A stretch of 64,000 nucleotides of DNA from Octopus vulgaris (taxonomy: Eukaryota). The stretch spans positions 23,560,001 to 23,624,000 of the forward strand of contig OX597821.1 of assembly GCA_951406725.2 (NCBI GenBank), written 5' to 3'. The notes under the pieces were generated by a model. That model did not search any database and was not told where the DNA came from. It saw only the letters and a list, made by a program, of their open reading frames with translations. Below, piece after piece: positions 444 through 63,026 of the stretch. Position 1 is the first letter of the stretch. Each line of letters opens with the position of its first letter. The position numbers and the translations under genes are program-made.

Positions 444-663
444 GGCGGCGAGCTGGCAGAAACGTTAGCACGCCGGGCGAAATGCGTAGCCGCATTTCGT
501 CTGCCGTTACGTTGTGAGTTCACATTCCGCCGAGGTTGACTTTGCTTTTCATCCTTTCGAGGTCGATAAATTAAGTACCAGTTACGCACTGGGGTCGATG
601 TAATTGACTTAATCCCTTTGTCTGTCCCCTCTTGTTTAGCCCCTTGTGGGCAATAAAGAAATA
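444..663 (+). mobile_element. tRNA-derived SINE, family A (Meta-domain-like core)
   Basis: Head ggcggcgagctggcagaa...gagttc; central gactttgc(c/t)tttcatcctttcg(a/g)ggtcgataaa-taagtaccag resembles the MetaSINE domain. Near-identical copies at 25582, 47333 (-) and 54621. Confidence 0.85.
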
Positions 664-749
664 TATTTATGTGTGTATGTATGTATGTATGTAAGTATGT
701 ATGTATTTAGGTATGTAGGTTGGTATGTCTGTCTGACTGTCAGACTATG

Positions 750-812
<63 letters not shown>

Positions 813-894
813 GTCTATCTATCTATCTGTCTATCTATCTGTCTATCTATCGCCCACCGCTGTTGCTGAAAAATATTCAACTGTATCAGGACGA

Positions 895-1348
895 AAGGGT
901 GGTTTTGTGGTAAGTAGCTTGCTTACCAACCACATAGTTCCGGGTTCAGCCCCACTGCGTGGCACTTTAGGCAAATATCTTCTACTATAGCCTCGGGCCG
1001 ACCAAAGCCTTGTAAGTGGATTTGGTAGACGGAAACTGAAAGAAGCCCGTCGTGTATATATAGAGATTTATGTATATATGTGTTTGTGTGAATATATATG
1101 TATGTATGTATGTATGTTTGTGTGTATCTATGTATATATTTGATTGTCTGTGTTTGTCCTCAAAGCATCGCTTGACAAGCGATGTTGGTGTGTTTACGTG
1201 CCCGTAACTTTGCGGTTCGGCAAAACAGACCGATTAAATAAGTACTAGGCTTACAAAGAATAAGTCCTGGGGTCGATTTGTTCGACTAAAGGCGGTGCTC
1301 CAGCGTGGCCGCAGTCAAATGACTGAAACAAATAAAAGAATAGAAGAA
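895..1348 (+). mobile_element. tRNA-derived SINE, family B (CORE-like, internal microsatellite)
   Basis: A/B-box-like head (gtggtaagtagc...ggttcagccc), CORE-like ctt(a/g)ggcaa(a/g)t, internal (TA)/(TG) tract and tail ...gactgaaacaa(g)taaaaga. Many copies in the window. Confidence 0.85.
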
Positions 1349-1595
1349 TATCTATAATCTGGTATGGCGGTGCAGAAACAAATGTTGTTATTTACTATTA
1401 AAACTGGATATCCTCCATCCTCGTGTTATACTATTCTTGTGTCAATCTTATGCCAAGAGCAGTTCCGCATATCTCTCCAGCTCTGGAATCTACCCTACAG
1501 TTGGATAGCATGTGGTAGCCAAATAATTACAAAATAGCTCTGAAATGCACTTTTACGAGGTTTTTAACCGAATTATACAATATATATATAAATAA

Positions 1596-1969
1596 GCACA
1601 GGCGTAGTTCTGTGGTAAGAAGCTTGCTTCCCGATCACATGGTTCAGGGTTCAGTTCCACTGCGTGGCATCTTCGAGAAGTGTCTTCTACTATACGCACT
1701 TGTCAACCAAAGCCTTGTGAGTGAATTTGGTAGACGGAAACTGAAAGAAGCCCCTGTATATGTGTGTGTCTGTTTGTCCCATCCATTATCGATTCACAAC
1801 CAATGCTGGTGTGTTTATGTTCCTGTAACTTAGCGGTTCGGCAAAAGAAACTGGTAGAATATGTACTAGGCTTACAAAGAACAAGTCCTGGGGTGTAGTT
1901 CTTCGACTAAAACCCTTTAAGGAGATGCTGCAGCATGGGCGCAGTTAAATGACTGAAACAAGTAAAAGA
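1596..1969 (+). mobile_element. SINE family B, diverged copy
   Basis: Collinear similarity to 21779-22197. Confidence 0.8.
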
Positions 1970-1986
1970 ATCTATCTATCTGTCTA

Positions 1987-2071
<85 letters not shown>

Positions 2072-2089
2072 CATACATACATACATACA

Positions 2090-2928
2090 TACGTGGTCCT
2101 GATCAATAAGTATCCGGACTGTTGCCATAGTAAGTACGCTGAGTGAAGCCGCTTGGCACAAATTGACCTTAAACTTTGCTGTTCTAGCTCACTTTCATCG
2201 TTCTAGCTCACTTTCGCTGTTTACAGTAATGCTTGGAAGGAACATGTGTAGCGTGTGATCATCACATTGACCATGACAGAGAAAGTTGAGGTGAGAATCT
2301 GCAGCAAATTTTGCCAAAAGCTTGGCGCTACCTGCTCAGAGGCTTACGCAAAGTTTTCGAAAAGTTTTCATCAAGGAGATCTTGTGCAACTGAAACCCCG
2401 AGTGTCATTTTGGTCAGCTGAAAGCAGTTTTGGCACAAACTTGGCAGACACACGTCTCATACCCAAATCTTCAGTGATAATGGACTGAACTGAATCGTAA
2501 CTAATCTGTACATCCTCTGATAAGTCACGGATGGTGATTCGACGATTCCCCTGACAGCTGCACGCACATTTGCGATGTATTTTCTGTTTTACTGTTTGCG
2601 TGTCTGCCAGAACGTTCGTCAATATCGACATTATTTTGGCCATCTTTGAAACGTCTGAACCACTCGTAAACTTGTGTGCGGCTCATACCCTCCTCTCCAT
2701 ACACTTTCTGCAACTTTGCGCAGGCCTCTGAGCAGGTATCGCCATGGCAACTTTTTTTCTTGTTATCAATGCGACGATCACACGCTACACGCCTTCCTTC
2801 CAAACACTGCTGTAAATAGTGAGCTAGAACGTTGAAACTTAGTGCGCCTGCACAGCAGTGCTGAAGGTCAATGTGTGCCAAGCGGCTTTAGCTTCGTTAC
2901 TACAGACCGGATACTTATTGATCAGACA
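2090..2928. mobile_element. Mariner-derived fold-back element (two 5' ends head-to-head)
   Basis: Terminal inverted repeats ctgatcaataagtatccgg at both ends. Minus arm encodes mariner N-terminal HTH residues (CSEACAKLQKVYGEEGMSRTQVYEWFRRFKDG..RSGR; RRITIRDLSEDVQISYDSVQSIITEDLGMRRVSAKFVPKLL). Plus arm encodes MTEKVEVRICSKFCQKLGATCSEAYAK. Confidence 0.8.
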
Positions 2929-2945
2929 TTATATATATATATATA

Positions 2946-3317
2946 TCTCCATATATATAAACGGCAAAATGTCTGTGTGTGTGTGTGTGTCCTTTATACA
3001 AATCCACAATCTTTCAGTTAGAGAGCTCGCACTTTCTATGGTCATTCAAAACCATCCAAGGGTGGTCGTGCACATCTTTACATTTTCCCAGTCGTCACCC
3101 CGCAAAGTCATTAAAAAATCAATAGAAGTAACTTTTTTTTATCCAAGACCCAATCAAAATGCCCGAAACTTGATGCGCCAATTAAATGGCAGCTAGCTGT
3201 ATGTGATTGGTCGGAGATTTGGACAATACTCGCGTGTATGTGCGCACGCACGCACGCACGCAGCTGTATATGCATGCACTAGCACTATGACCCGGCGTTG
3301 CCAGGACATAGTGCTAG
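2946..3317 (+). mobile_element. Non-autonomous Helitron
   Basis: 5' TC after an A, subterminal hairpin cccggc-gtt-gccagg (3291-3305), 3' CTAG followed by T. No TSD; internal (TG)n. Confidence 0.7.
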
Positions 3318-3331
3318 TATATACATACTAC

Positions 3332-3379
<48 letters not shown>

Positions 3380-3380
3380 T

Positions 3381-3545
3381 CTTCTACTTCTTTCAGCCAT
3401 GTGACTGTGGCCATGCTGGAGCACCGCCTTTAGTCGAGCAAATCGATTCCAGGACTTATTCTTTTTAGCCGAGCCGCCAACACACCAGCATCCTCGTTCC
3501 AGCAATGTTGGGGGAACAAACACACACACACACAGACAGACACAC

Positions 3546-3642
<97 letters not shown>

Positions 3643-3812
3643 CATACATATATACGACGGACTTATTTCAGTTTCCGTCTACCAAATCCCCTCACAAGGC
3701 TTCTGGTCGGCCCGAGGCTATAGTAGAAGACACTTGCCCAAGGTGCCATGCAGTGGGACTGAACCCGGACCATGTCGTTCGTAAACAAGCTACTTACCAC
3801 ACAACCACTCCT
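3381..3812 (-). mobile_element. SINE family B
   Basis: Reverse complement of the family B consensus with an internal deletion and (CA)n(TA)n tract. Confidence 0.8.
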
Positions 3813-3936
3813 ACGTCTACATATATATATTTATATATATATATCTCTTCTTTCTTTTTTTTTTTACTTGTTTCAGTCATTTTGACTGCGGCCATCCTGG
3901 AGCACCACTTATATATATATATATATATATTCTTTT

Positions 3937-3999
<63 letters not shown>

Positions 4000-4358
4000 T
4001 AAAACACGCACTGGCATACAAACTTCGACAATCAAATTTACCTTGTAATGTAACAGTTTACTGTTTTGCTAAGATGAGAAATAACCTTATATTTAGGTCG
4101 GCGTGTGGTGACAACACCACCACTCTCGCCATCACCGCCACCACCACCACCACCACTGTCACGAAGAACAACAAGAACAATAATTAGCATCATCGTCCTC
4201 CTCCTCCTCATCATCATCATCAGCAGCAGCAGCAGCATTTGCTACTGTAGGGAGCGTGTGTTTCAAGCTTAGTCAACTTTTTTTTCAACTAGGTCGCATG
4301 TGACATATCGCATTATCAAGCGGGTCGCACTACACGAACGAAAAGCTTAAAGGTAATT

Positions 4359-4508
4359 TGGCTGTGTCACAAGAAGCTTGCTTTCCAACCACATGGTTTC
4401 TAAGTTCAGTCCCACTGCGTGGTACCTAAGGCAAATGTCTTCTTAGGCCGACCAAAGCCTTGTGAGTGGATTTGGTAGACGGAAACTGAAAGAAGCCCAT
4501 CATATATG

Positions 4509-4554
<46 letters not shown>

Positions 4555-4735
4555 TGTATTTATCCCCTCGTTCCCCATTACCGCTTGACGTCCCCGTAAC
4601 TTTGCGGTTCGGCAAAAGTTACTGATACAATAAGTACTAGAGGTAAAAAAATTTTTTGACTAAAATCCTTCAAGGGGATGCTCCAGCATGGCCGCAGTCA
4701 AATGACTCAAACAAGTGAAAGATAAAAGACAAAAG
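4359..4735 (+). mobile_element. SINE family B, diverged
   Basis: Head ggctgtgt...aagttcagtcccactgcgtgg, body and tail collinear with other copies. Confidence 0.75.
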
Positions 4736-4917
4736 GTACACTAATTTGGTAAAGCAGTGCGAGTGCACTATAGTTTGTTAAGAGAGGGAGAGGTGGTCAA
4801 GGTTGGAATATCTTTGATTATAGCATTGTACGATCAACGCATACCTGGAGCTGGCAAAACAGTAACAGCAACGGTAACAGCAGCAACAACATTTGCAGCA
4901 GCCAAGCAATGCTGCTG

Positions 4918-4950
<33 letters not shown>

Positions 4951-5329
4951 ACCACTCCACTGTTAACCTCCACACCATCACCACCGCCGCAACGACACCA
5001 CCACCATCACCACCAGCGCCACACTATAACTACCACCGTCGCAACGACACCATCACCATCACCATCACTACCGCTATTACTACCACGAGCAGCAACAGCA
5101 TTACCGCTACAAATAACGTCACTACGTTCTAAACACGCCTCTCCTCAACAGCAACAACAACAACAACAACAGTCAGTGTATTTAGAACCTGTGATAACTT
5201 GTGTCAGAGATAACAGTTATGACATGAATAAACAACACAGACAAATCTGACATTTCTCTGTTCCACCACATTTCACCGTTACACATTTAAAAAAAAATTA
5301 GTTATTTCATTACGCTGAGCTAACATACA

Positions 5330-5940
5330 TAATTAGACAAACCTAACATAAAACAGAGTGAGCCAACACATAATTAGAGCTAATATTTAGCATTAGACCT
5401 AACTTACATTCGACATTAGACCTAATAAGTCATTAGGCCTAGCTAACATATAACCTTATGTCCTAGCTAACACAGGATATTAGACCAAACAAACATACGA
5501 CATTACAGCTAGCTAATGTATGACGTTAGCCCTAGCTGATATACATAATTAAATCAAGCTAACATGTCATATTAGATCCAGCTAATACAGCGTTAGACCG
5601 AGCTAACATATTTCGTTGGACCTAGCTGATAAATAGATCTAGCTAAAGAAATGTCATTAGATCCAGCTAGCATTTAACATTAGTTCTAGCTAAGAGATAG
5701 CAAAAGACCTAGCTAACATACAGCATTAGACCTAGCTAACATATGTCATAAGATATAACTGACATCTAGATCTAGCTAACAAACAATATTGAACCTAATT
5801 AACATACACCATTAGACCAAACTAGCATATGACATTAGACCAAACTAATATACAATAGACGTTACTAGCATATGTCAATACACCTAACTTAGATTAGACC
5901 AAGCTAGCATACAATATGAGACCTAGCTGACATACATTAC
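5330..5940. repeat. Degenerate ~23-25 bp minisatellite (cattagacctagctaacatatga-like)
   Basis: Recurrent ttagacc(t/a)agctaacata motif, roughly two dozen diverged copies. Confidence 0.8.
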
Positions 5941-6355
5941 ACTTTGTCACATGATTTTTGTCCTTTGGCAGCAACTGTTATTTCCTATTTGCTTACCCCC
6001 AGAAAATATGCAGAACAGCTAATTCTCCCTTCAAACTATGCTTTTGTCGTATTTATTCAGACCCCAAAGAATCCTTCTCAACACATGGCTATTACTCCTG
6101 CTCATGATCAGAGATGCACATATTGTCAGTCACTAAGAGATAAGCAAATCTGTGGTATTGAGCAGAATATTTGCTACAACGATATTTCTGCTGCAGCAGT
6201 TCAGCGCTGAATCTGTCTGAAATGTAATGGAAAATAGGTCAGTTTCAAGACATTGATGTCGAAATCACAAAAGCAAAGTCTGAAGAGAATATTAGTCATT
6301 TCCTTTGATTTCTAGATAGAAGTAAGTAGGGAATAACATTTACTGACAAAAGGCA

Positions 6356-6391
<36 letters not shown>

Positions 6392-7248
6392 GTTGTTACC
6401 CAGTGTTATTTAATCTAATGACGATATCAGTTCTAACTTACTATACGTATTATTGTTAGCGAATAGATCCTATTGGCCGTAATTAATAAAATGTCAGTCT
6501 GTAAAACGGATTGTAATCCAAGTACCGGTTCATATGATACATATGCATCAAGAAATGTTTAACTTCACACTTAATGTTGGCAAAAAAATCATTATTATCT
6601 AAATGTGTAATTGTGGTTTTAAAAAAATGCAGGGGAGATAACTCCAAAATTATAATTAATTAAAATTAATCAAATATGGAAAGTAGTGAGATATTAAACC
6701 GTATTGTGAAATAACTCTGGACATGTTTTGGTCTCATTAGACCTCATCAGTGAATTATAGTTTATTCGCGGGTGAAAGATCTTAGAATGACAAGAATTTT
6801 TTTTTCGGAAATGAACAGAGCAGATGACATAATAGATTAAATGAACGACTCGGAAGAATTCCTGGGGACCAATGCTGCATGAAATCTTAACAGCAAAGTG
6901 AGTGTTAGTATACTTGATGTAGCTGGACAATAAACTCGAATTAACTAAAACAGCACCCTTAACACTAAGAAAAATTATAGTCTAAATCAGGGCACGGCAA
7001 GTTACAGCCAGTGGCTTCACTTCGATCAGCTTGCTAATTTTGAATATGTGACGGTGCATACAAAACGTTTTTGTTACCCATTGTTATCTTTAGACAATGA
7101 AGAACAGCATTTTAACATTGAAGAAAACAAAAAGAGCAAAGCGTATTTTTCACCTGTCATTTATCGCTATGGTAAGCGCTAACAATGAAATTCTAATTGT
7201 ACAATACAAGCAGCTTTGCATCAAAATCGCTACCTACATGACACACTA

Positions 7249-7465
7249 AGGCAGCGACCTGGTAAGATCGTTACCGCGCCAGACAAAATGCTTAGTGGCG
7301 TTTGTTCTGACTTTACGTTCTAAGTTCAAATGCTTCTCGAGTCGACATAACCTTTCAAACTTTCGGGGTCGGTGAAATAACTACCAGTTGAGCAATAAGG
7401 TCGACTAATCAACTTGTTCCCCACTTCAGCCACGAAATTGCTAGCTTCGCGCCAAAATTTGAAAC
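7249..7465 (+). mobile_element. SINE family A, old diverged copy
   Basis: ggcagcgacctggtaagatcgtta...ctttcggggtcggtgaaataactaccag. Confidence 0.65.
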
Positions 7466-7824
7466 CGTTTTCTGTACGACATACTTAACGTGTGTATATC
7501 GTTGAAAATTTGGCAGCTGCAGTGGTGGTCTCGGGAAAGATCCCTTCATAGACGTAGGACATAGACACAATATACTTCAGGGCTAAACGGTTTCTGTTTC
7601 ATCATTCGAAGTTTATTCAGTGGACTCTTTGCAATACCACCTTATTGTTTATCCATTGATTCAATATATTTCGGACTGGTCGATGCAATTTCGTGTCGGA
7701 AGTGATGAGATTGCGTGGCACTGATAAGCAGCAAAATCGGTGATAGGCGCATCCGTCTTGTTCGCAGTCGCTTACGGGAGGATTTCGTTTCGTTTCGAGC
7801 TCTGAAGCATATTGTGTGTGTGTA

Positions 7825-7870
<46 letters not shown>

Positions 7871-7882
7871 TGTGTGTGTGTT

Positions 7883-7927
<45 letters not shown>

Positions 7928-7952
7928 CGTGAGAGAGAAAGACAGACAGATT

Positions 7953-8031
<79 letters not shown>

Positions 8032-8049
8032 GTTATATAGATGATATAG

Positions 8050-8720
8050 TAACCTGAGATTGTTTGTTAGCAAAGAAGGTAGAACCATTTAATGATGGGA
8101 AATTAATCAAATTATGTTTAATAGCAACAACTGAAGAATTATATCCAGAAAGAAAAGTATTTATTCAAGAATATAATTTCTTTTTCTGGCAAAAACAACT
8201 ATAAAGAAAGTCGAAGACAAGAAGAAGCCTGTACCAATTAAAGAATCAAGTACAAGATTTCATTGGTTGTCTATGATTCTTGATGAATTAACGGTTATGT
8301 CTGACATTTCGGTTCTGCCATTGTTTCCAGTAAAATTAGATTTATTCAGAGATATTAGTTTTTCTGTAGAAACAGGAACTAGAGGAGTCGAAGGCCGGAG
8401 ACTACATCCTACGTGTATTAAGCGATAAAGGAGATATCCAGTGGTTTTCTTTGGCTCTTGATGGATCTACAAACCTGTCTGACATTTTGGTGCTCATTTG
8501 AGGTATTGAAGCTAAATTTGCAGTAACGGAAGAACTAGCTTTAGCGAGCTGCATACATTAAAGAACTGCTGGCGAAGACATATGCAAAGACGAGGAAAAA
8601 AACAATATTGATGAAGTACAATGTGGTTTGGAAACATCAATAGAGCGTTACAATTCATGGTAGCAAAAATATATGCGGTGCAGGAAAAAGTTTTCGTTGG
8701 ATAAATCTACCAAGTTTGTG
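8050..8720 (+). pseudogene. Decayed hAT (SPIN/Charlie, GTF2IRD2-like) transposase fragments
   Basis: Fragments translate [24 protein letters not shown] (cf. KPFTDGEFIKECL) and FFLALDGSTNLSDILVLI*GIEAKFAVTEELAL..TAGEDI (cf. FSLALDESTD..TEEL..TTGEDIF). Stops and frameshifts present. Confidence 0.65.
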
Positions 8721-9333
8721 ACAGGTTGGGATCTATCATTCAGTTTTAAATCTCTGAGAGCGAGATGTTGGCAATAAACTTTAATTTAAAAGATTTATCC
8801 AAAAAATCTTATTTAGCTGTTATTTTAGCAGACCAGAACAAACAATAAAAATATATTTAATTACTATTTAAATGTACTTGAAAAACAAACATTCAACTTT
8901 CGGTTTTAATTTTTAAAATATCCTCCTCTGTTTGCAATGCTTCCATAACAGAAGCGAAGTCACTCGGACTTACTGCCATAATCACACAGAATACAGCGTC
9001 AAATTTGTCAACATATGCTTCCTCGCAGATAAAAGACTTTTCAAAGACTGCTCAGATTAGCTTGTTACTACGGTAACAAGCACGTTGAGAGACAAAGGGG
9101 TTCTCATGTTCCGCTTCTTACTATTGAAACAGCCATGAATGTGTCTGTGGCTTACGTTTGGCTAAAATTACCAAAATTTTCAAACTTTAATTACCAATAA
9201 CTCTTTATTTATTGATTTCTAGCGAAAATTACTTTCACGTAATTTATTTGCCTATAAAAGTGTATCATTACACTGAATATGAAATCAATTCGAACAGAAA
9301 ATTGACGCTGGTAACCAAACAGAAAAGATTCTG

Positions 9334-19370: not shown

Positions 19371-21778
19371 ACGTGATCGAAGGGAGTCGTTACTCTATAT
19401 TTTTTATACCAAGTATCGATTGGTTCCGTATGAATGCATGATACGAGTTGTTGCACTGTGAATGGGGAAGCAATCGTGTTTGACACGTTCGGAGCGGATG
19501 TACATCGGCTAGTTGGGTGAGAAGAATATTCGCTTCATGGACATCGCTACGTATATGAAATGTTGTTATTCATCTAGTGAAAAGGCTGTTGCCGTCTAAA
19601 GAGATATCAACATCTAGTATGAACTTCACTCCCAGAAGTATCAGACCGATGAAAACATTCCCCAAGAGACGACAGTGTCGTTCATAGACTGTCAGAAATC
19701 AACCGTCGAATGACTGCATTTTACATCGAAACTAGTATAAGCATGCGCAGCAGACCCAGACGATCGTTGACAATTGTCTGCAGAGGCTGAAAAGCGCGAC
19801 TCAAAATTCGCGTGGGCGATGCTCGCTCGGACAGTTGTCGAGTGGTGTTTTTAGTGGAAAGACAAACCCAAAAGGCAAAACACAAGTTCGACTAGTTTGG
19901 ATATGATACAAGACGTATGCAGAACGTTATGCTCCGATGAAGGGAGTAGTGTGTGTGTGTGTGTGTTCGTGTGTGTGTGTGTATGCGAGTGTGTGTGTGC
20001 GTGTGTATGTGATCTGTGAAGGTCTTTTGGTTGAAGATCCCGGTCTTATCGATCGCACCATCAGCAACGTGGGTTAAACTTTTGCTTGTCCAAATCATTT
20101 TCACAAGTTTGTCCGAAGCGTCCAGATTTTTAGTTAACCTCACTTTCATGTGTTCTGAGTAAATATAAAACTTTTCATTTATAAGTCCCAAGTTACTCTG
20201 GTAGTTGAAGAAAAAAATGGTAATATGCATCATATAGAATGCATGGATGTGTCCTGCATGTCACACATACATAATACACAAGATAAGCCAAGAAATCTAC
20301 GAAGACATTCTTTAGTGACGTCCTTTCGTCTTATTGCCGCCAGAACAGATTCTGATGCATAACAACCTCAAACACACTGCATATTCATTCGAACATTTCA
20401 TCTCTGATTAAAGAAAAAGGAGAAACAAATGAAAAAGAAACAATATCTTGAATTGTTGAAATCCCCGATGTAATCCAGTCAGATCAAAAATCTCTGAAAC
20501 GAAATCGATCATGACATCAAAGCTAACAAAACTCATTAAATTTCAACAATCTGTTCGCTGTGAACACACGATCCTGAGAACGAATTCCTATTCATCGTTG
20601 TCAGTACCTCCACAAATGACTACTTCACAGATGTCGCAATGGCATTAATACAAAAGCTCATCACGGTGGATTTTGACCTGTGAACAGGAAACTGTTTTTT
20701 TTTTGCGTTAATAAAATAACATCTTCACTCCAAGGCCTGATTCTAAATTTAAAAATGAATTCTATACACACAAATGAATAAATATTAAAGAACATTGAAA
20801 TTAAAGAAAGATATTTGAGCATAACTTTACACGACATTCGTAGAATATTTAATGGCGCATTAAAAAAAATATTAAAGGTTTAAATAATTTATTCAATCCT
20901 GCAGCCATAAAATTATGTAAATTTCGTTTATATTTAAAGATGTTCCAACCGTAACCATCATGTCTTTTACTGATGTTGTATATCTAGGTAGCATGGTATC
21001 GGAGAGAGAATCGGGTGGCATTTCTAGGAGGTCGGTTGACCACTTAGAGGCTTCACTGCTGTTATTGTACTGGACAGTTTTCTAGCTCGTGGTACTTCAG
21101 TTTGAAATTTATGGAGAGAGAGGGGAGAGAGAGGGGAGAGAGGGAGAGTGGGGGATGGCGAAAGGGAGGCGGAAGGGAGTTAAGGAGAGAAGGGAAGATG
21201 AAATAGATTAAGAGGTAGAGAGAAATGAAAGGTGAAGAGAGTGAAAGGCCGAGGGGGTAAAATACGAAGAGAGAGAGAGAGAGAGCAACAATGATAGATA
21301 GCTAGACAGATAGATAGGAAGAGAGAGAGAATGAGAGAGTGAGAGAGTTAGAGAGATAGACAGGAGGTGAAACGAAACATGTGTCAGCTGGTCAAACAAA
21401 AGTCGAGATGAGAATTAGATGCCACCACCACCACCACCAACACTACCATCACCGACTAAAACCCCACCACTAAAATCTTCACTAAAACCCCACCACTAAA
21501 ATGACCACCACTACCAAACACCAAAACCCCCGCCGCCACAACCAACACCACTAAAACTACCACAAACACTAACATCACCATCAAAATCACCACAGACAAC
21601 TCCCACACCACCAGCACATTTTCACCACCAGCATATTCAAACAGCTGAAATAGCAGCTAAATTCTTGTAAACCATCCCCACGCATCTTGAAAAACGAAGG
21701 ACTCGGTTTTACATATTAATTAATGGTGCATTAACAATCCATATTATGTATATAATATATTAATAATCAATGTGTATA

Positions 21779-23938: not shown

Positions 23939-24251
23939 GTAGGCCTCCGCTTCCTCGACGAATTCTCACTATGCAGGATTTCTTATATAGATTTTCAAGC
24001 AAAATACATTTGCTGATTTCGAAAATCTGTTCGAAAGCAATAATAATTCTCTAAAAGGGATATAGACAGTAACTGCTCGATAACATAAGGGACTAAAGCC
24101 ATCTGAATATGGCTAGGGACAGGGCAGGGTGGTGGGGGTGTTACTGTTGCATTTAGCCCCAGGCGAACATCGACGTCACCAGAAAGGCTCGACACCGTCA
24201 CGGTGCCCTAAACCTGCAAAGGGAGGTAATTCCCCGATGAAGCGGAAACCA

Positions 24252-24297
24252 CACACGGACCATGGTTTCAAGGTGTATTGCCTATCATCGGCGTGTG
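24252..24297 (-). ncRNA. Type I hammerhead ribozyme motif (U4C variant), copy 2
   Basis: Identical to copy 1, 359 nt away. Confidence 0.7.
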
Positions 24298-24757
24298 GTA
24301 GGCCTCCGCTTCCTCGACGAATTCTCACTATGCAGGATTTCTTATATAGATTTTCAAGCAAAATACATTTGCTGATTTCGAAAATCTGTTCGAAAGCAAT
24401 AATAATTCTCTAAAAGGGATATAGACAGTAACTGCTCGATAACATAAGGGACTAAAGCCATCTGAATATGGCTAGGGACAGGGCAGGGTGGTGGGGGTGT
24501 TACTGTTGCATTTCCGCTTCATCGGGGAATTACCTCCCTTTGCAGGTTTAGGGCACCGTGACGGTGTCGAGCCTTTCTGGTGACGTCGATGTTCGCCTGG
24601 GGCTAAATGCAACAGTAACACCCCCACCACCCTGCCCTGTCCCTAGCCATATTCAGATGGCTTTAGTCCCTTATGTTATCGAGCAGTTACTGTCTATATC
24701 CCTTTTAGAGAATTATTATTGCTATATATATATATATATTATATATATATATATATA

Positions 24758-28876: not shown

Positions 28877-29064
28877 AATTATCCGTGTGGGACTCTAGAC
28901 TCTGCGGTCTAAAAGTTTCATGTATTACAAAACAATCATCAGTAAGGAAGAAAACACATCTAATTCGTAGTATTGTGGTACTATGCCACTTTTTCTGTGT
29001 CTCACACATACATTTATAGATACGTACGTACATAACTATCTATCTATCTATCTATCTATGTATG

Positions 29065-29116
<52 letters not shown>

Positions 29117-29130
29117 AGTCTATCTATCTG

Positions 29131-29216
<86 letters not shown>

Positions 29217-29217
29217 A

Positions 29218-31621
29218 ACAGGGATGCAGTTTACGCGAACCCGAAAGGATGTGTGAGACCTTTCAACAACACTTTGCTCGACTGTTTGGTGCGAGTGGTG
29301 GGTCGGAACGCGGGATGGATTTCAGTACCTACCTGACCGACCTGCCGCGGCTCTCGGTAAGAGAAGCGGAGTGTTGTGAAAGTCCCATCACGGCCGCTGA
29401 CGTGCGGGATGCGATGGCGAGCTGCGCGAGGGATAAGTCGCCTGTATTGGATGGCTTACCCTACGAGCTGTATAGTCAAATGCCAGACTTGTTTGGCGAC
29501 CTCTTGGCATCAGTCTACTGCAACTGGCAACAAAACGGGAAAATCCCCGGTTTCGTGAGCCGAGGTGCAGTGACGTTGCTGAAGAAAGACCCAAACAAGG
29601 GGAATTTTATAGATAATTTCAGGCCCATCACTCTGCTTAACGCAGATTTGAAAATTTTGACCGAAGTAATAGCCGAGAGGTTGGCGCTTGTCATTGGCAA
29701 ACTGGTCGACAGGGCGCAAACATGCGCCGTGCCGGGCAGAACCATACATGACAACCTCCATCTGATGCGCTACATTGTGGACAGGGTAGTTAAGGATCCT
29801 GGCATGAGTGGGGCGCTGATCAATTTGGATCAGTCTAAAGCCTTCGATAGGGTAGACCATCGGTACTTGGCGGCCGTCCTCAGGGCGGCTGGCTTCGGTC
29901 CCGTCTTCCGCGGTTGGATCGCTGCCTTGTATAGCGGCATCCGATCGGTGATTCGGGTGAACGGTCACCTGTTGAAACCGTTTGACATCACGCGTTCGGT
30001 CAGTCAGGGGTGTCCTCTGTCGGCGCTTCTGTATGTATTGACTCTCGAGCCGCTACTGCGGAAGCTGGCGACACTGAGGGGCATCCCACGGGAACTGGGT
30101 TGCGGGACGAGCGTGTCAGCATATGCGGACGATGTCACCGTCATAGTGTCGAGCGAAAAACATCCAGATGATAGGCGAGACACTAAGAAAATACGAAACG
30201 GTGACGGGAGCGAAGATTAACCCGGAAAAGTCAGTGGGTTTGCTACTCGGCACCTGGAGAAGCAAGCCCATGCCGTCCGACTGCGGCTCAGTAGTGGGAC
30301 GCTGGACGGACGGACCGGTTAAATTGCTCGGGGTCTGGTTCAGTTCGGGCCTCCAAATGGATAAGAACTGGGACGAGATCACGAGTAGAGTGGTCGCTCT
30401 CAGCCAAACATGGGCCGAGAGAAAGCTGTCTCTTAAAGGTCGGGCGGAGGTGGCGAACGCGTACATCGCATCCGTCATCGATTACCGCCTGACCGTCGTA
30501 CCTTGTCCCGACGCCACCATCACCAAACTGGAACGCATACTCTTCCGCTTCCTGTGGAAGGGTGGCGTTCCAATGGTGAGGAGGTTCATTTGCTGTCAAT
30601 ATCCGTTGAATGGAGGACTAGGCACGCCGTGGTTGATGATGCGCAGGCATGCGCTGAGACTGTGACATCTCTGGAACTTTATCGATGACGGTGAACAGGT
30701 GTGGGTGCCGTTTGTGAGGCGCACCTTCCCTCAGCTCGTCTCACTGACCGAACTGCAAACGTGGATCAGGAAGAGACCGAAATTGGGCGATTAGCATCGA
30801 GAGTGTCGCCAAGCTCTACAGCAGCTCTGCCGACCGGGGTCAAACTTGTGCAACTTACAAACGACTAAAGCGTTCTATAGAGGACTAGTGAAGGGGAGGT
30901 CCGACGACACACTCGGAGCAAACCTGGGCGTCGACGAGAAATTCCTAACCCGCCTGTTCAGGACGAAGTTCGGCCCGGGGCCTATGGATAACTTCCAGAA
31001 ATCCCTGGCTTGGCAATCCTATCGAGATGCACTACCTGTTCGAGAGAAGAGCTACAGGCACGGTTCGAAAACCATCAGCGGACCGACCTGCCCGAGATGC
31101 GGTCAGAGCGACGAAACCGTTCTGCACGCACTCGTGCAGTGTCCAAATATTTCAGAGCTGTGGACCTTCGTCGAACAGCTGTTGTCGCGTGTAGGTCGGG
31201 CCCGCTTATCGGCCGAGTCTATCGTGAATATTGTTCCACCACCTCCCTTTAAACGGGAAGGGAAAACGGTTTTCGTTACGCTGATGGCTATGGCGAAAGA
31301 ATGTGTGTGGTGGACGTGTTTGAAAGGACTGCAAACAAACACCTTCCTCTCTGGTCAGTCTCTCAACTTTTTCAAGTACCACTTGAAAAGGAGGATGAGA
31401 ATAGAGAGGAAGGCTTTGTCGAACGAATGTTTTAATAAAAAGTGGGTAAAAGTGGCAAAAATGGTCAGTATAAAAGACGACACTATTTTAAGCGTAAATC
31501 TGTGACCAAAAAAGACAACAAGAGGTAAGGTGACTTACTCATGTGTTCATTTTCGGACTGTCTGAGGTGACCTTGGTCTTTTTTGTAGGTTTTTCTTTCC
31601 AGGGCTACACCTAAACTGTGA

Positions 31622-38987: not shown

Positions 38988-39097
38988 TGTATATATATAT
39001 ATATATATATGTATAAGGGTGAAAAGGAACACACGAGTTGATATATATGAAAAAACAAGTCAAAAATAGAAAATGCTAAAATAATTTTATAGTGAAC

Positions 39098-39143
39098 ATT
39101 TCAGTACCGGTTTCGGTCATTTTGAGACCTTTTCAACTGTAAC
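39098..39143 (-). ncRNA. PLE hammerhead ribozyme motif (U3-A8 variant), inverted copy
   Basis: Exact reverse complement of 42302-42347. Confidence 0.7.
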
Positions 39144-40420
39144 GATTAAATAATTAAATTTAGAAAAATTAGAAGAAAAGTTTTTTAAAAGAATATTTCT
39201 ATAGTAGTGTTCAGATTTAAGTGGCATTCTGTCTTTCTCTGACTCCCTTGTTTGCACTTGTGTGTCGGAGGTCGTTGTGAGTTCTTGGAAGTGTAGTAGA
39301 GGAAGAAGGCTGGTGGGGAAAGGGGGATGGGAGAATCTGGGAGTGCCCTGATGGTCGTATTTTGAATGGTCAGTGGCGGCTGGCAGTCTCAGTTCAATTC
39401 AGGAGAATATTTATATTGACAGGCTTGTTTATAGAATTAGCGTGGGTGTTATACTAAAAAACATTAGTGACAAAGTTAAGGGGTAGGGGGTGGAGAAGTA
39501 GAAGAAGAAGAAGAAGAAGAAGAAGAAGAAGAAGAAGAAGAAGAAGAAGAAGAAGGAGAAGATGACGATGATGGTGGTGGTGGTGATGATTATGACGACG
39601 ATGATGATGATAATGATGATGAAGAAAAAGAAGAAGAAGGAGGAGAAGGAGAAGATGGTGGTGATGATGGTGGTGATGATGATGACGACGATGATGATGA
39701 TAATGATGATGATGAAGAAGAAGAGGATGAAGAAGAAGAAGAAAAAAACAGAGAAGGGGGAATATGAATGGGTGTAAGTATAGCTATGAAGGGGCTGATT
39801 AGTAATGGATTCTATGGAGTGTAATATTTGTGTGTGTATATATATTTTTTTCTTTTATTCTAAAGTTGAGGTATATCAATTGTTTGTCGTAGACCCGTTT
39901 AGAAGTGGCTTGTATTTTGTAATAAAGAGATTTTCTTTACTTATTCGTTGTCTCGAGGTTGTATCGTCCCTAAATTGGTAGAGGGGGAAAATTCTGAAGT
40001 TTGGTGTTTTTTGTTGGCGCAAGTATCTATGTGTTGGCTAAAAGCTATTTTTCTGTTTTGGGGAATTTTTATCTGGGATCTGTGCAGGGCCATTCGTTTA
40101 CGCAAACCATTTTTTGTTTGGCCTATGTACTGCTCTTGACACCCGGAGCAGGTTAGTGAGTATATTAGGTTCTCCGAAGCACATGTGAAGTTGCTTTTCA
40201 CTGTAAACCGTTGTCCCTGCTTGAAGGAGAACTCTGATCCCTCAATTAGATAGTCGCATATCCCGCAATTGGGTCTTCCACATTTTTTTACTGTCGGCTT
40301 CTGTGTTGAGGAGTGAATTCGGGCTTGTGTAAGGAGACTTTTCATGGATCTAGGCTGTCTTTTGCTTTTTATGATCGTGTGTGTTTGGAGGATTGTGTTC
40401 ATTCTGTGGTCTTTTTTTAG

Positions 40421-41560
40421 TCATAGGATACCTAGAGATCAGTCTGTATCGTAAGGTTCTAGAAAGATATGGCAGCCCTTTCTCCATCTACATAGAAAAC
40501 AACTGGAAGAGATATCTAGATGACTGTTTCATCCTTTGGCATAAAAATATAGAAAAACTCATAGAATTCCAGAAAATTTTAAACGGACTGGACGTAAACA
40601 TCCAATTCACGATGGAATATAGCCAACAACAACTCCCCTTCCTCGATATCCTCATTAAGAAAGCTAATAATATAATAGAAACAGACATATACTATAAGCC
40701 TACAGACTCTAAGCAATATCTTCCATTCAATTCATGCCACCCCAGACACACCAGGATGATTATCCCCTTCAATCTAGCAAAAAGGATATGCACTATAGTC
40801 TCTAACGCAAATACCAGAGACACACGACTACAAGAACTAAAAGATACCCTAATCACCAGGAACTATCCACCTTCACTTATTGACAAGTGCATTCAACGTG
40901 CCCTTCAACTTAACATCAAGGAACTGAGACATCCCAAATCAAAGAAAAACTTACAACCAAAAGCCTTACCATACATCTCCACACACAACCCTCTCAATAA
41001 CGAAGCCTTCGACACCATCCTCCACAACATACCCCTCCTAAAAAAAGACCACAGAATGAACACAATCCTCCAAACACACACGATCATAAAAAGCAAAAGA
41101 CAGCCTAGATCCATGAAAAGTCTCCTTACACAAGCCCGAATTCACTCCTCAACACAGAAGCCGACAGTAAAAAAATGTGGAAGACCCAATTGCGGGATAT
41201 GCGACTATCTAATTGAGGGATCAGAGTTCTCCTTCAAGCAGGGACAAACGGTTTACAGTGAAAAGCAACTTCACATGTGCTTCGGAGAACCTAATATACT
41301 CACTAACCTGCTCCGGGTGTCAAGAGCAGTACATAGGCCAAACAAAAAATGGTTTGCGTAAACGAATGGCCCTGCACAGATCCCAGATAAAAATTCCCCA
41401 AAACAGAAAAATAGCTTTTAGCCAACACATAGATACTTGCGCCAACAAAAAACACCAAACTTCAGAATTTTCCCCCTCTACCAATTTAGGGACGATACAA
41501 CCTCGAGACAACGAATAAGTAAAGAAAATCTCTTTATTACAAAATACAAGCCACTTCTAA
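40421..41560 (+). pseudogene. PLE RT-GIY-YIG ORF, truncated and frameshifted
   Basis: Open from the junction at 40421. +1 A near 41248 is absent from the inverted copy; a further frameshift near 41450 is present in both arms. Confidence 0.85.
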
Positions 41561-42301
41561 ACGGGTCTACGACAAACAATTGATATACCTCAACTTTAGA
41601 ATAAAAGAAAAAAATATATATACACACACAAATATTACACTCCATAGAATCCATTACTAATCAGCCCCTTCATAGCTATACTTACACCCATTCATATTCC
41701 TCCTTCTCTGTTTTTTTCTTCTTCTTCTTCATCCTCTTCTTCTTTATCATCATCATTATCATCATCATCGTCGTCATCATCATCACCACCATCATCACCA
41801 CCATCTTCTCCTTCTCCTCCTTCTTCTTCTTTTTCTTCATCATCATTATCATCATCATCGTCGTCATAATCATCACCACCACCACCATCATCGTCATCTT
41901 CTCCTTCTCCTTCTTCTTCTTCTTCTTCTTCTTCTTCTTCTTCTACTTCTCCACCCCCTACCCCTTAACTTTGTCACTAATGTTTTTTAGTATAACACCC
42001 ACGCTAATTCTATAAACAAGCCTGTCAATATAAATATTCTCCTGAATTGAACTGAGACTGCCAGCCGCCACTGACCATTCAAAATACGACCATCAGGGCA
42101 CTCCCAGATTCTCCCATCCCCCTTTCCCCACCAGCCTTCTTCCTCTACTACACTTCCAAGAACTCACAACGACCTCCGACACACAAGTGCAAACAAGGGA
42201 GTCAGAGAAAGACAGAATGCCACTTAAATCTGAACACTACTATAGAAATATTCTTTTAAAAAAACTTTTCTTCTAATTTTTCTAAATTTAATTATTTAAT
42301 C

Positions 42302-42347
42302 GTTACAGTTGAAAAGGTCTCAAAATGACCGAAACCGGTACTGAAAT
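42302..42347 (+). ncRNA. PLE hammerhead ribozyme motif (U3-A8 variant)
   Basis: gttacag TTGAAAA ggtc-tcaaaat-gacc GAAA CCGG TA ctgaaat; lies about 50 nt from the element 3' end. Confidence 0.7.
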
Positions 42348-42392
42348 GTTCACTATAAAATTATTTTAGCATTTTCTATTTTTGACTGGTTT

Positions 42393-42451
<59 letters not shown>

Positions 42452-57420: not shown

Positions 57421-60400
57421 CAGGTCACATGAGAAGCTGGTTGAACTTGGTGACTTTAATGCACGTTTTGGTAGAGCAGTGGTTTTCAACCAGGGTTCCG
57501 TGGAACCTTAGGGTTCCGCCAGTACAGTCCAGGGGTTCCGCAAGAAGTTACAAAACTGCTAAAATCGACAGTAATTTTTAATTTTCCTATGCAGATGTGT
57601 GTGCATGAGACTATTAAATCATTGCACAGGGGTTCCTCGAGCCAGTGGAATGTTTCCTTGGGGTTCCACTTCAGCAAAAAGTTTGAAAAGCACTGTGGTA
57701 GAGACTATGGTGCTTGGAATGTACTTGGGCGTTACGGAATAGGAAAGGTGAACAACAATGGGTTGCATTTACTACAAATGTGCTCTGAGCTAGCGCTGGT
57801 TGTTGGGATGACTTTCATTCACCATAAGATGAAACATAAAATTACCTGATACACCCAAGATCAAAGTGAGGTCACATGATTGAATCATGATTGACTTTGT
57901 ATTAACTCGGAAAGCTGACTTACAAGATTTGTGCAGTCTCAGAGAATTACGAGGTGCTGACTGTGATACTGATCGCAAAATGGTTAGGGCCAAGTTCAAG
58001 TTCAGGGTCCGCAAGAAAATTCGTAGTGCAGGTGTACGAGTACCAAAGAAAAATGATGCAGAGCAACTAAAACAGTTGAGGTTATTTCAGAAGAGATGCG
58101 GCGATGTTCATTTTGAAAGTTCATGGCAATCTTTCCGGGATGGAATATATAAAATGGGATCAGAGGTGTTAGGTTTGAAGAGGAGACAGCACCGAGACAG
58201 GTTTGATTCCAATGATATGATGATAAATGAACTTTCAGCAACAAAGAGATCCACTCGTGATAAGTTTCTTGAGCCAAACGTTAAGAACAAAGTGCGACTA
58301 GAAAAGTTGTACATGTCTCAGAAAGCAGACTTGCAAAAAGAACTCAGGAGGCTTAGAGACACTTGGTGGAGAATTTTGTCTGAGGAAGAACAGGCAACCT
58401 ATGACCGGAAAGACATTAAAAGTTTCTATAGTTTATTGAGCCAAGCTTTTGGACTGCAATCTTCATCATCATATGTTCCCTTGAAGTCGAAAGATAGAAA
58501 TGAGGTTTATTAAAGATCCTCCTGGAATAATGAATAGATGGAGAGAACACTTTGCAGATCTTTTCCACAATCCATCTGTAGTGAACATGGATATCGTAAA
58601 CAACATTCCACAAAGAGAGATACTGCAACAGTTTCCATTGAAAAAGTAAATCTGTCATTATGTAAACTGAGTTCAGGTAAAGCTCCTGGATTGAATGATA
58701 TTCCAGTTGAAATTCTGAAAGCAGGTGGGGATGATATTTCATCTGAAATTCGTGGCCTGAGTTTGGAATGAATCTTCTGTGTCACAAGAATGGATAAATG
58801 GCATTCTAATGTCTGTATACAAGGGTAAGGGCCCGAAAGCAGTGTGTGGTAATTCTAGAGGTATAACTCTCCTGACACATACGGGAAAATACTTTCAAGG
58901 ATATCGTCTCGTTGAGAATGTGTGCCTACATATGATTCCTGAAGAACATATGAGCGAGGAACAATGGACATGACACTTTCTGTAAGGCAGGTTCAAGAGA
59001 AATGCTTTTGTGTAAACTTGGTTGTCCAACACATTTTGTGAACATTTTTAAAGAACTACACAGAAACATGAAAGCTCAAGTAGTCCTTAATGGTGAGCCA
59101 TCTCATGAATTTTCGGTGGACAACGGTGTCAAGCAGGGAGATATTCTTGCCCCTACATTTTTCTCTATTTATTTTGATGCATTGCTTTGGTATGCTTTTA
59201 AGGATTGCAACAAGGGAATCGGAATATGATTTCGGACATCTGGTCATATTTTTAATTTGACCCAGTTTAACTGCAAAGCAAAGACTTTCAAAATGCTTGT
59301 TAGGGAATTACTTTATGCTGATGATGGTGATTTGTTGGTACACTCAGAGGGGGATACGCAACATTTAATGGACAGATTTCCCACTGCATGTGTACAGTTT
59401 GGAGAAAAACAAAGTAACGTTTACTCCTGTGCCAGGACAAACATATTCTGAACCAAACATTTTTGTGAATGGAACAAGGCTAGAAGTCGTCGACACCTTT
59501 GTTTACCTTGGAGGCACACTGTCAAGAGATGGTGGTCTTGATGCAGAGATATACTATCGAATAGGGAAGGGAAGTGTTGCATTTTGAAAACTCGAAAATC
59601 GAGTATGGGTGGATAGATATTTCGCTCCAGACAAAAATCAGTGTCTATAAAGCGTGTGTATTGTCTGCACTTCTTTTTACAAGCATCATATAAAAATGCT
59701 GGAGTGATTTCATCAAAAGTGCCTCAGACATATCTTAGGAGCCAAGTGGGAATATTTCATACCAGATACAGAAGTTTTGCGCATGCCACGTTGCAGGTCA
59801 ATTGAACAAAATGTTATCTTGGCTAAAATGAGATGGACTGGACATGTTATTAGAATGAAAGACGAGCATTTACCAAAGCGTCTTTTTTATGGTGAGCTCA
59901 ACTCTGGTAAGCGGCCACAACATAAGTCGAGGAAAAGGTATAAAGACTGTGTGAAAGAAAACCTGAAGAAACTAGATATGAACAAGAGTGATTGAGAAAA
60001 TGATGTTCTTGATCGGAACAAGTGGAGAGGTGCTGTTAGGACTGGTTGCAATGTCTGGGAGGAAAAGATGATTCAGCACTCTGAGCTTAAAAGGGACTGT
60101 CGCAAAGGAACAATTGGAACTGTAATCAACAGTGAACATTGGATATGCATTATATGTGATCGTGTTCTGTTGTCAAAAGCAGGATATGTGAATCATATGA
60201 AGTCACATGAAAATCGTAATGCCTGATAGGTAATTTTCTTGGACACCAACCACCTCTTATGACTTGTATCATATGTCATAAAACTTGTAAGACAATATCT
60301 GGGCTTAAAAGACATATGCTAGTTCACAAAAAACATTCCTTCAGAATCAGATTCCAAAGAGCAAATATATAGAAGAAACTTGAATAATATTTGTCATTTA

Positions 60401-61202: not shown

Positions 61203-62043
61203 TTTTGCCGGAACGCTTAGTACAGGAGCGGGTGCATGAAAACACCAAACAATGTTGTCAAGCGGTGGTAGTGGTGGTGGTAGGGGTGGGGGACAAACAC
61301 AATCAAACACACACGCATGCACGCACACACAGACACACGCGTGGCCCTCCACCCATGTGTCTGTCTGTAACATTCTGCAAAACATCCGCCACCGGCCTCT
61401 TTGATGTTATCGCTATATCTGGTTTTAGGTCTCTTCCTCTTGTTCATTTGTCATATGCCGCACCTGTTAACAGCAACTCGTCTCGATCTTGTCTTCTAAG
61501 TGTATTGACCGGTAAAGATCCATTTTCGTATGATAGTATTTAACAGCATTTCTTGGTACTTTATCTTGTGAAGGACTCACTCATTATTTCTTTTATTTGT
61601 CCCGCTTATTTTGAGAATGCGTCTAAAACACCATTGTTCAAATGTTTTAATTTTGCCTTTTATCAATTTTCTTTATAATCCAGCATCAGCTCCATAGGTG
61701 ACTATGCAAAACATTAATGAATTGATGAGTCATTTTTTTCTTTGTCCGCAAGGAGATGGCCTTATTCTTCCATATACTATTCAGTCATATCATAGCATTC
61801 TTGGCTATGCTGAGTCTTCACTTCATTTCACGGGTGTCATTGTTGTCATTGGTTATAAGAGTACCAAAGTACACAAAATTCTATTACGTAAAATCTCACG
61901 TGATCACCTACCCGACCAGGCTTTCAGATACTGTTACACATCGCTGGTCCCAATGCGCTTTTGCAGTGACGCCACCCCGCTAGCTAAACGAGCAGGCCAA
62001 CATCCTGGGAGTGAGCTTTTTTCGGATATGTGAACTATAAACG

Positions 62044-62094
<51 letters not shown>

Positions 62095-63026
62095 GGCACG
62101 TGGCCTAGAAGTTAGGCTGTTGCACTCATGATCGCTAAATCGTGAGTTCGGTTCCCTGAGGAGGCGACGCGTTGTGTTTTTGAGCAAGACACTTCATTTC
62201 ACGTTGCTCCGACTCAATTTCGATCAGGGGAGGATGTTGGCCTGCTCGTTTAGCTAGCGGGGTGGCGTCACTGCAAAAGCGCATTGGGACCAGCGATGTG
62301 TAACAGTATCTGAAAGCCTGGTCGGGCAGGTGATCACGTGACATATTACGTAATAGAATTTTGTGTACTTTGGTACTCTTATAACCAATGACAACAATGA
62401 CACCCGTGAAATGAAGTGAAGACTCAGCATAGCCAAGAATGCTATGATATGACTGAATAGTATATGGAAGAATAAGGCCATCTCCTTGCGGACAAAGAAA
62501 AAATGACTCATCAATTCATTAATGTTTTGCATAGTCACCTATGGAGCTGATGCTGGATTATAAAGAAAATTGATAAAAGGCAAAATCAAAACATTTGAAC
62601 AATGGTGTTTTAGACGCATTCTCAAAATAAGCGGGACAAATAAAAGAAATAATGAGTGGGTCCTTCACAAGATAAAGTAGCAAGAAATGCTGTTAAATAC
62701 TATCATACGAAAATGGATCTTTACCGGTCAATACACTTAGAAGACAAGATCGAGACGAGTTGCTGTTAACAGGTGCGGCATATGACAAATGAACAAGAGG
62801 AAGAGACCTAAAACCAGATATAGCGATAACATCAAAGAGACCGGTGGCGGATGTTTTGCAGAACTTTACAGACAGACACATGGGTGGAAGGTCACGCGTG
62901 TGTCTGTGTGTGCGTGCATGCGTGTGTGTTTGTGTTTGTGCCCCACCCCCACCACCACCACTACCACCGCTTGACAACATTGGTGTTTTCATGCAGCCCC
63001 TCCCGTAACTAAGCGTTCCGGCAAAA
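61203..63026. repeat. ~800-bp inverted duplication with 224-bp spacer
   Basis: 61203-62006 is the reverse complement of 62231-63026 with scattered substitutions. Arms contain SINE B, RTE 3' (GRPKTRYSDNIKE-like) and V-like SINE pieces. Confidence 0.9.
62092..62345 (+). mobile_element. tRNA-derived SINE (same family as 42480-42750)
   Basis: Head tggcctagaagttagg...gagttcggttccc; body gttggcctgctcg..tagc. Confidence 0.65.

Follow-up and report, generated by a model that had tools for sequence, protein, structure and literature searches.

Positions 42302-42347 of the 64,000-nt stretch of Octopus vulgaris DNA analysed here (the window) read as a hammerhead ribozyme in which UUGAAAA stands in place of CUGANGA, and raise the question of whether a core altered at two places is a chance match, the decay of one copy, a relic carried along by an amplifying family or a family form in its own right. 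Using a combination of motif descriptors, folding, protein homology and contigs from public sequencing runs, we arrive at a reading that we hold to be probable, namely that the minimal type I hammerhead known from the pLTRs of EN+ Penelope-like elements (PLEs) has here a core variant that is specific to one lineage and shared by the whole family, and that it would cleave as a dimer. The motif and its second copy comprise the following features.

42306..42343, plus strand: type I minimal hammerhead with U3-A8 core (by descriptor numbering, folding and a match to Rfam HH9 below gathering)
42306-42308/42341-42343, plus strand: helix I, 3 bp, CAG/CUG
42309, 42314, 42315 and 42340, plus strand: core bases U3, A8, A9 and A17
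42316-42319/42327-42330, plus strand: helix II, 4 bp, 7-nt loop
42331-42334, plus strand: G12-A15.1 (GAAA)
42334-42339, plus strand: helix III, palindrome ACCGGU
Between 42340 and 42341, plus strand: predicted cut, after A17
39102..39139, minus strand: second hammerhead, in the inverted arm (U3 39136, A17 39105), identical to the plus-strand copy

The UUGAAAA core, GGUC/GACC helix II, GAAA, ACCGGU palindrome and GUA site named in a preliminary description of this DNA are all in place under descriptor numbering: U4, G5, A6 and A9, G12, A13, A14 and A15.1, and U16.1 and H17 are present, and positions 3 and 8 can form a Watson-Crick pair, as U3-A8, the 3-8 pair itself being established, as had been stated (PMC3884650). 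Helix II is closed by G10.1-C11.1, and its 4 bp form with a pair probability of 0.97 in the 46-nt fold. The extra unpaired base between 9 and 10.1 is absent, which is no bar to membership of the minimal hammerheads since this feature is usual rather than universal. Past the 3-bp helix I lie an A-A mismatch and then 2 further pairs, and helix III, left with a 2-nt loop, cannot close in the monomer. The motif sits on the sense strand of a pLTR 3' of a PLE RT-EN ORF, about 725 nt beyond the EN stop, in keeping with the earlier view of it as a PLE terminal hammerhead. The reported identity to the inverted arm extends to every letter of the 46 bases (42302-42347, plus strand, versus 39143-39098, minus strand); with arms 98.5% identical, these are recent copies rather than independent ones, and both count as one observation. 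The stretch 42302-42347 is thus confirmed as a real minimal type I hammerhead motif of a PLE, whose cleavage is predicted only.

Could such a motif arise by chance, or be what is left of a canonical CUGAAGA hammerhead in a decayed member of its family? A descriptor accepting C3-G8 or U3-A8 cores, drawn up after the motif had been seen, gave exactly 2 matches in the window, the two known copies, and none in 300 block-wise dinucleotide-shuffled 64-kb windows or in the 439-nt 3' region shuffled 20,000 times. These controls show that base composition does not account for the match; no blind p-value follows from them, the descriptor being post hoc. Allowing any base at 3 and 8 added just 2 weak matches in the window, at 20774 and 43687. 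The 71-nt region folds no better than its shuffles (z -0.72), and the best Rfam match, to Hammerhead_HH9 (19.7 bits, E 0.012, gathering 52), appeared only in a 196-nt search, so that the motif falls below the gathering threshold of the Rfam families (clan CL00010). Across the whole window, the 150 Rfam matches listed out of 398 include no hammerhead and are almost all microRNA-like, on simple repeats. Viral contigs gave 0 matches to a degenerate hammerhead pattern and 0 relatives among 38 candidate stretches. An Rfam score far under gathering, in a locus that is truncated and frameshifted, would suit decay or chance, but the empty shuffles, together with the lack of any C at 42309 or G at 42314 at a 2% share in four runs aligned at 80% likeness, leave that account with hardly any credibility.

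The insertion that carries the motif is a PLE of 3.4 kb, 5'-truncated, 5'-inverted and frameshifted, with the following parts.

40421..41583, plus strand: 5'-truncated PLE ORF with the C-terminal part of the RT and thumb, a C-x4-C-xx-C linker and a GIY-YIG endonuclease with CCHH
About 41246, plus strand: frameshift, forward arm only
About 41446-41452, plus strand: frameshift in an A-run, both arms
41584..42404, plus strand: 3' non-coding region/pLTR, about 820 nt, containing the hammerhead and ending in (TA)n
About 41700-41950: (TCT/CAT)n tract in the pLTR, 250 nt, both arms
39041..40420, minus strand: inverted 5' arm, repeating 41038-42404 with its EN part, pLTR and hammerhead at 98.5% identity
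42398..42448, no strand: (TA)n tract at the right end, likely the target site
Near 39041-39049: shorter TA run at the left arm boundary

One frameshift common to both arms and one private to the forward arm mark this copy as dead. At the arm junction, near 40417-40420, a few bases would fit either side, to judge by the LVxGYLE motif in relatives; a 15-nt length change in the (TCT/CAT)n tract separates the arms. Both element ends lie inside TA runs, and the element runs about 60 nt beyond the predicted cut site. All three PLE hallmarks are present, namely an inverted 5'-truncated copy, an extension past the hammerhead and a (TA)n target; in the Anolis PAc element, extensions past the hammerhead are ascribed to reverse transcription starting downstream (PMC11167929). 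The Pfam GIY-YIG match (E 0.0007, 20.3 bits) falls just below the 22.6 cut-off. Homologs of the PLE protein number 257 among 1,241 longer candidates, the best of them 61% identical; full-length homologs are about 750 aa long and hold an RT plus GIY-YIG, and those under eukaryote names come from bivalves. The linker cysteines C642, C647 and C650 are invariant in a 21-row alignment. A CX2-5CxxC linker before the endonuclease is described for Neptune and Nematis and as lacking from Penelope and Poseidon in the accessible part of PMC8557442, which argues for Neptune or Nematis rather than Penelope/Poseidon. By its sequence, the carrier is an EN+ PLE of Neptune type, with Neptune chosen over Nematis on motifs alone. 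PLE proteins also occur under the names of bacterial symbionts or MAGs (P0013, P0077, P0096; L029-L032), most likely as host DNA in bins.

Other foldbacks of the window were considered as copies of the PLE and rejected, being without homology to the element. In the large foldback at 61297-62939, which shows no similarity to the PLE, a 224-nt spacer containing a (TG)n run separates two arms that are each about 710 nt long and 98-99% complementary. A recent tandem-plus-inverted duplication at 23950-24723, with 213-nt arms 100% complementary and ending in (TA)n, has a PLE-like architecture, yet neither homology to the element nor a hammerhead match. The window also holds a fragmented non-LTR retrotransposon ORF (29036-31505, plus strand; RVT_1 E 9e-26), continuing in more frames, and a 209-aa frame at 57884-58513 that resembles a LINE endonuclease-linker region and has no Pfam match.

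Is U3-A8 a property of this copy or of its family? The 3' region was found in 20 of the 24 runs listed (10 studies, 6 organism labels), and four runs under 3 organism labels were aligned at 80% likeness and a 2% share, contributing 2, 2,379, 2,051 and 6 contigs; as contigs rather than reads, they have a summed depth that does not equal copy number. None of the 37 substitution rows over 439 nt falls at U3, at A8, at any of 13 core bases, in helix I or in the palindrome. Within the motif just two rows occur, 42316 G>A (15 contigs of run X5, 28 of X6, 1 of X13) and 42330 C>T (43, 68 and 1 contigs of the same runs), and they affect the partners of one pair, 10.1-11.1. A diverged subfamily keeps the core and exchanges its G-C helix II closing pair for A-U; a minority of contigs has A-U or G-U there. 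In X13 both changes occur together with a 2-nt deletion in loop II, at the depth of a single contig; this diverged contig (record 8) has 13 other letters in 123 nt at a depth of 4.5 and is possibly erroneous. A loose-end consensus (21 X5, 25 X6 and 1 X1 contigs) shows CAG-UUGAAAA kept in the diverged subfamily behind a different upstream flank. Position 42340 (A17) likewise has no variant at 2% in the four runs, which makes the combination of U3 and A17 family-wide, and neither do both CpG bases of the palindrome. U3-A8 is therefore the family form in three organism labels and not decay; a CUGAAGA consensus with this copy as its decayed member, which the preliminary description had said would count against its reading, was not seen, with no other letter at 2% in the contigs of the four runs.

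That description had further taken the two changes that restore the 3-8 pair as a sign of selection for activity, a claim that survives in weakened form. The invariant core speaks for it; against it, both core changes (C>U and G>A) are transitions within a 23% G+C stretch and, with 28 variable sites over 439 nt, two given sites would be invariant by chance with a probability of 88% and 13 core sites with one of 0.42. In the diverged contig, all 29 constrained sites would stay unchanged by chance with a probability of about 0.04, a rough estimate drawn from a single contig at depth 4.5. These comparisons would suggest, modestly, purifying selection on the hammerhead core. The claim also overlooked a competing partner for U3, the cleavage-site base A17.

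In the lowest-energy state of a two-copy co-fold (-22.9 kcal/mol), a double-hammerhead geometry is reached in which helix II is intramolecular, a 6-bp ACCGGU helix joins the molecules and the helix I strands are swapped. We suggest that in a full-length tandem element two motifs would join in this way, with their ACCGGU palindromes paired and helix I strands exchanged, and that the double hammerhead would cut after GUA to process the long element transcript. On this proposal an ancestral C3-G8 would have become U3-A8 by two transitions, kept because the 3-8 pair may need geometry rather than identity; in PAc, a C3G/G8C double mutant gave partial rescue (PMC11167929; PMC8495972 agrees). Helix I has a probability of 0.54 alone and of 0.09 or less in 120-300-nt contexts. 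Pairing of U3 with A17 extends it. The predicted probability of this pair is 0.50 for the monomer and 0.56 for the dimer, in estimates by nearest-neighbour folding, which leaves out the tertiary 3-8 pair; in the dimer, two such pairs are worth 2.2 kcal/mol. In published G17 variants, a C3-G17 Watson-Crick pair on helix I was proposed as a trap, strong in minimal forms, and a G3-C8 variant reportedly fared better with G17 than with C17 (PMC3884650); by analogy, U3-A17 in octopus would be a weaker pair of the same kind, and having both bases should leave the ribozyme partly trapped. Our search, which took in few subscription papers, found no report of U3-A17 pairing.

PLE minimal hammerheads are reported to cleave weakly as dimers and, in the accessible parts of the two sources, not as monomers, with a dimer mechanism proposed (PMC4209133; PMC6765202), and the PAc hammerhead cleaved only with its protein present (PMC11167929). 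For the active octopus family we favour a ribozyme that would be of low activity, dimer-dependent and probably protein-dependent: a short helix I, no evident loop-loop contact and the U3-A17 trap all point to weak cleavage as naked RNA, which the element's protein would help. This locus is a dead insertion. In a read-through RNA over both arms, the arms would pair, with -125 kcal/mol predicted for the 81 nt that surround the motif, and so bury it in long double-stranded RNA; this particular copy is probably inert.

The same observations could be turned towards a catalytically dead or nearly dead relic in an amplifying family, in which AT-biased mutation fixed U3 and A8 in a master copy, U3 became trapped with A17 and the element spread without cleavage. 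The two transitions in a 23% G+C stretch and the predicted U3-A17 pairing, at about half in monomer and dimer alike, fit such a course, as do the weakening of the conserved G10.1-C11.1 pair in the diverged subfamily, the thriving of Naiad PLEs without canonical hammerheads (PMC8557442) and the behaviour of PAc, whose insertion in vitro was unchanged by hammerhead mutations and so dispensed with cleavage, and for which no RNA-seq reads were reported to end at the cut site (PMC11167929). However, the change at 10.1-11.1 is compensatory and the 2-nt deletion sits in loop II; both palindrome CpG bases have stayed free of variants at 2%; and U3-A8 has arisen separately in other PLEs, with U3-G8 in 0 of 11 filtered motifs and C3-A8 once. 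We consider the relic unlikely, if deserving of some weight, and retain the family-wide core variant as our reading.

A further possibility starts from the sequence directly upstream of the core.

42280..42308, plus strand: U-rich tract ending in CAG directly 5' of U3, a putative 3' splice acceptor

Here the motif would serve mainly as a splice acceptor or a protein-binding signal, with the CAG of helix I ending a 5'-UTR intron, so that splicing removes one strand of the helix and switches the ribozyme. The U-rich tract and CAG before U3 are common to both subfamilies, and in Drosophila virilis Penelope the 3' end of an intron maps to the 5' end of helix I (PMC4209133). Yet a U-rich flank is general to minimal hammerheads (PMC4209133), helix II and the palindrome are left unexplained, and 41584-42308 contains no consensus donor and two weak GT(A/G) sites only; a donor at 41519 was dropped because it lies inside the endonuclease frame. 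The four runs contain no spliced joint at the motif, and the single contig of a putative RNA run (X1) crosses the region unspliced; each of the 6 joints listed comes from one low-depth contig of a DNA run, and none ends at 42308. On this balance a splice signal seems very improbable. An ATG at 42346 was likewise rejected as a start codon after the hammerhead, with a stop after 7 codons and two bases that vary in the family. More speculatively, U3 could pair with A8 (active) or with A17 (trapped), making a natural family-wide hammerhead that is off by default and is turned on by dimerization and the element protein, possibly also by splicing at the CAG, in a retroelement that selected its own trap. 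We rate this elaboration as rather unlikely; if true, the NUH rule for cleavage would depend on which bases form the 3-8 pair.

The direction in which the core changed was sought among protein relatives. A profile search of prokaryote assemblies found 4 PLE relatives in 37 candidate stretches, taken to be host DNA in bins, and of these protein relatives with DNA context two carry C3-G8: one (L029, 46%) at 199 nt after the ORF match, missed by the descriptor owing to an extra base before GAAA and found by eye, the other (L030, 42%) at 149 nt after it; L031 stops short of the 3' end. The C3-G8 cores of these two informative loci suggest that C3-G8 is likely the ancestral state. The fourth stretch (L032, 29%), 9 kb of a contig binned as bacterial, has seven hammerheads of four or five sequence types at 595-8760, all C3-G8, around a PLE-like RT match, and may represent either several nested PLEs or a Terminon-like element.

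A metagenome scan with a pyrimidine at 3 and a purine at 8 returned 28 matches (19 C3-G8, 6 U3-A8, 2 U3-G8 and 1 C3-A8). A filter for helix I of at least 3 bp, H17 and a loop II of at most 15 nt removed 14 rows (8 C3-G8, 4 U3-A8 and both U3-G8) and, with 3 duplicates taken out, left 11 distinct motifs, of which 8 are C3-G8, 2 U3-A8 and 1 C3-A8, a borderline 3-8 covariation (one-sided Fisher p 0.055). The value for all 28 rows (p 0.0005) was set aside, many of them being without helix I and chance-like. One contig (L004) carries U3-A8 with C17 at 676-707, preceded by a 160-codon frame and followed by two long ones of 392 and 659 codons; its RT frame, which the motif precedes, is 30-31% identical to 3 of the 8 query proteins used, themselves drawn from 120. 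This tandem PLE has no DNA similarity to the octopus element and a distant RT, which argues that the U3-A8 swap recurs independently. Another contig (L025), whose 4.4 kb give no PLE protein match, also has a U3-A8 hammerhead at 351-389; it is well formed, with a helix I of 4 bp and A17.

The novelty that the preliminary description had implied does not hold, since U3-A8 is in print both for PLE minimal hammerheads (PMC4209133) and as natural covariation (PMC3088659). In the latter, Perreault et al. (2011) give several examples of U3-A8, stated to be active in vitro, which share the octopus covariation and, in the accessible text, are not tied to PLEs or to dimer-dependent minimal motifs. Our search for U3-A8 hammerheads led to the 2014 paper of Cervera and De la Peña alone; as judged from titles and abstract openings, with most subscription papers outside the search, we found no description of an octopus, Penelope or Neptune hammerhead family, and a paper on the giant squid offers, in the text covered, nothing beyond an Rfam tally of 235 hammerheads. 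Cervera's first descriptor did miss U3-A8 (PMC4209133), as had been foreseen for strict CUGANGA searches, and the octopus motif confirms that such searches undercount PLE hammerheads. A high-copy family fixed for U3-A8 and A17, with a sister subfamily that swaps 10.1-11.1, offers natural constructs with which to learn the least cleavage that a PLE can do with, and the conflict between U3 and A17 is the single feature worth a bench test.

Closest to the octopus motif are the Cercyon PLE families Sm3/Sm4 of Schistosoma mansoni, with 'U3-A8 instead of C3-G8' in about 1,300 motifs (PMC4209133). The S. mansoni(4) row of Fig. S3 in that work shares with octopus the UUGAAAA heptamer and a 3-bp helix I in a PLE pLTR, whereas the S. 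japonicum row beside it reads CUGAAGA; the motif assayed there was Sm1, and the accessible part names no U3-A8 family among those assayed. Unlike the Schistosoma U3-A8 forms, the octopus motif has a 4-bp helix II, no bulge after A9 and a 6-nt palindrome in helix III (PMC4209133), its N17 is A versus U (row 4) and G (row 3) in Schistosoma (PMC4209133), and its carrier is a Neptune-type EN+ element in a different host from the Schistosoma Cercyon PLEs. The hammerhead of a shrimp PLE, from Marsupenaeus japonicus, resembles it in lacking the A9 bulge and in its short helix II, 6-nt palindromic helix III and A17, but has a canonical C3-G8 pair and a 5-bp helix I (PMC4209133); the shrimp element has been called Neptune-like (PMC8557442), and the 9/10.1 bulge is absent from both the shrimp and the S. 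kowalevskii(2) rows of Fig. S3 (PMC4209133). The PAc (Poseidon) element of Anolis carolinensis likewise has genomic copies that end downstream of the cut site, but it belongs to the Poseidon clade, carries C3-G8 and has protein assistance shown, which in octopus we only infer (PMC11167929). The U3-A8 core is thus not new, and the octopus motif joins a published PLE variant, to which it adds a host lineage and a PLE clade.
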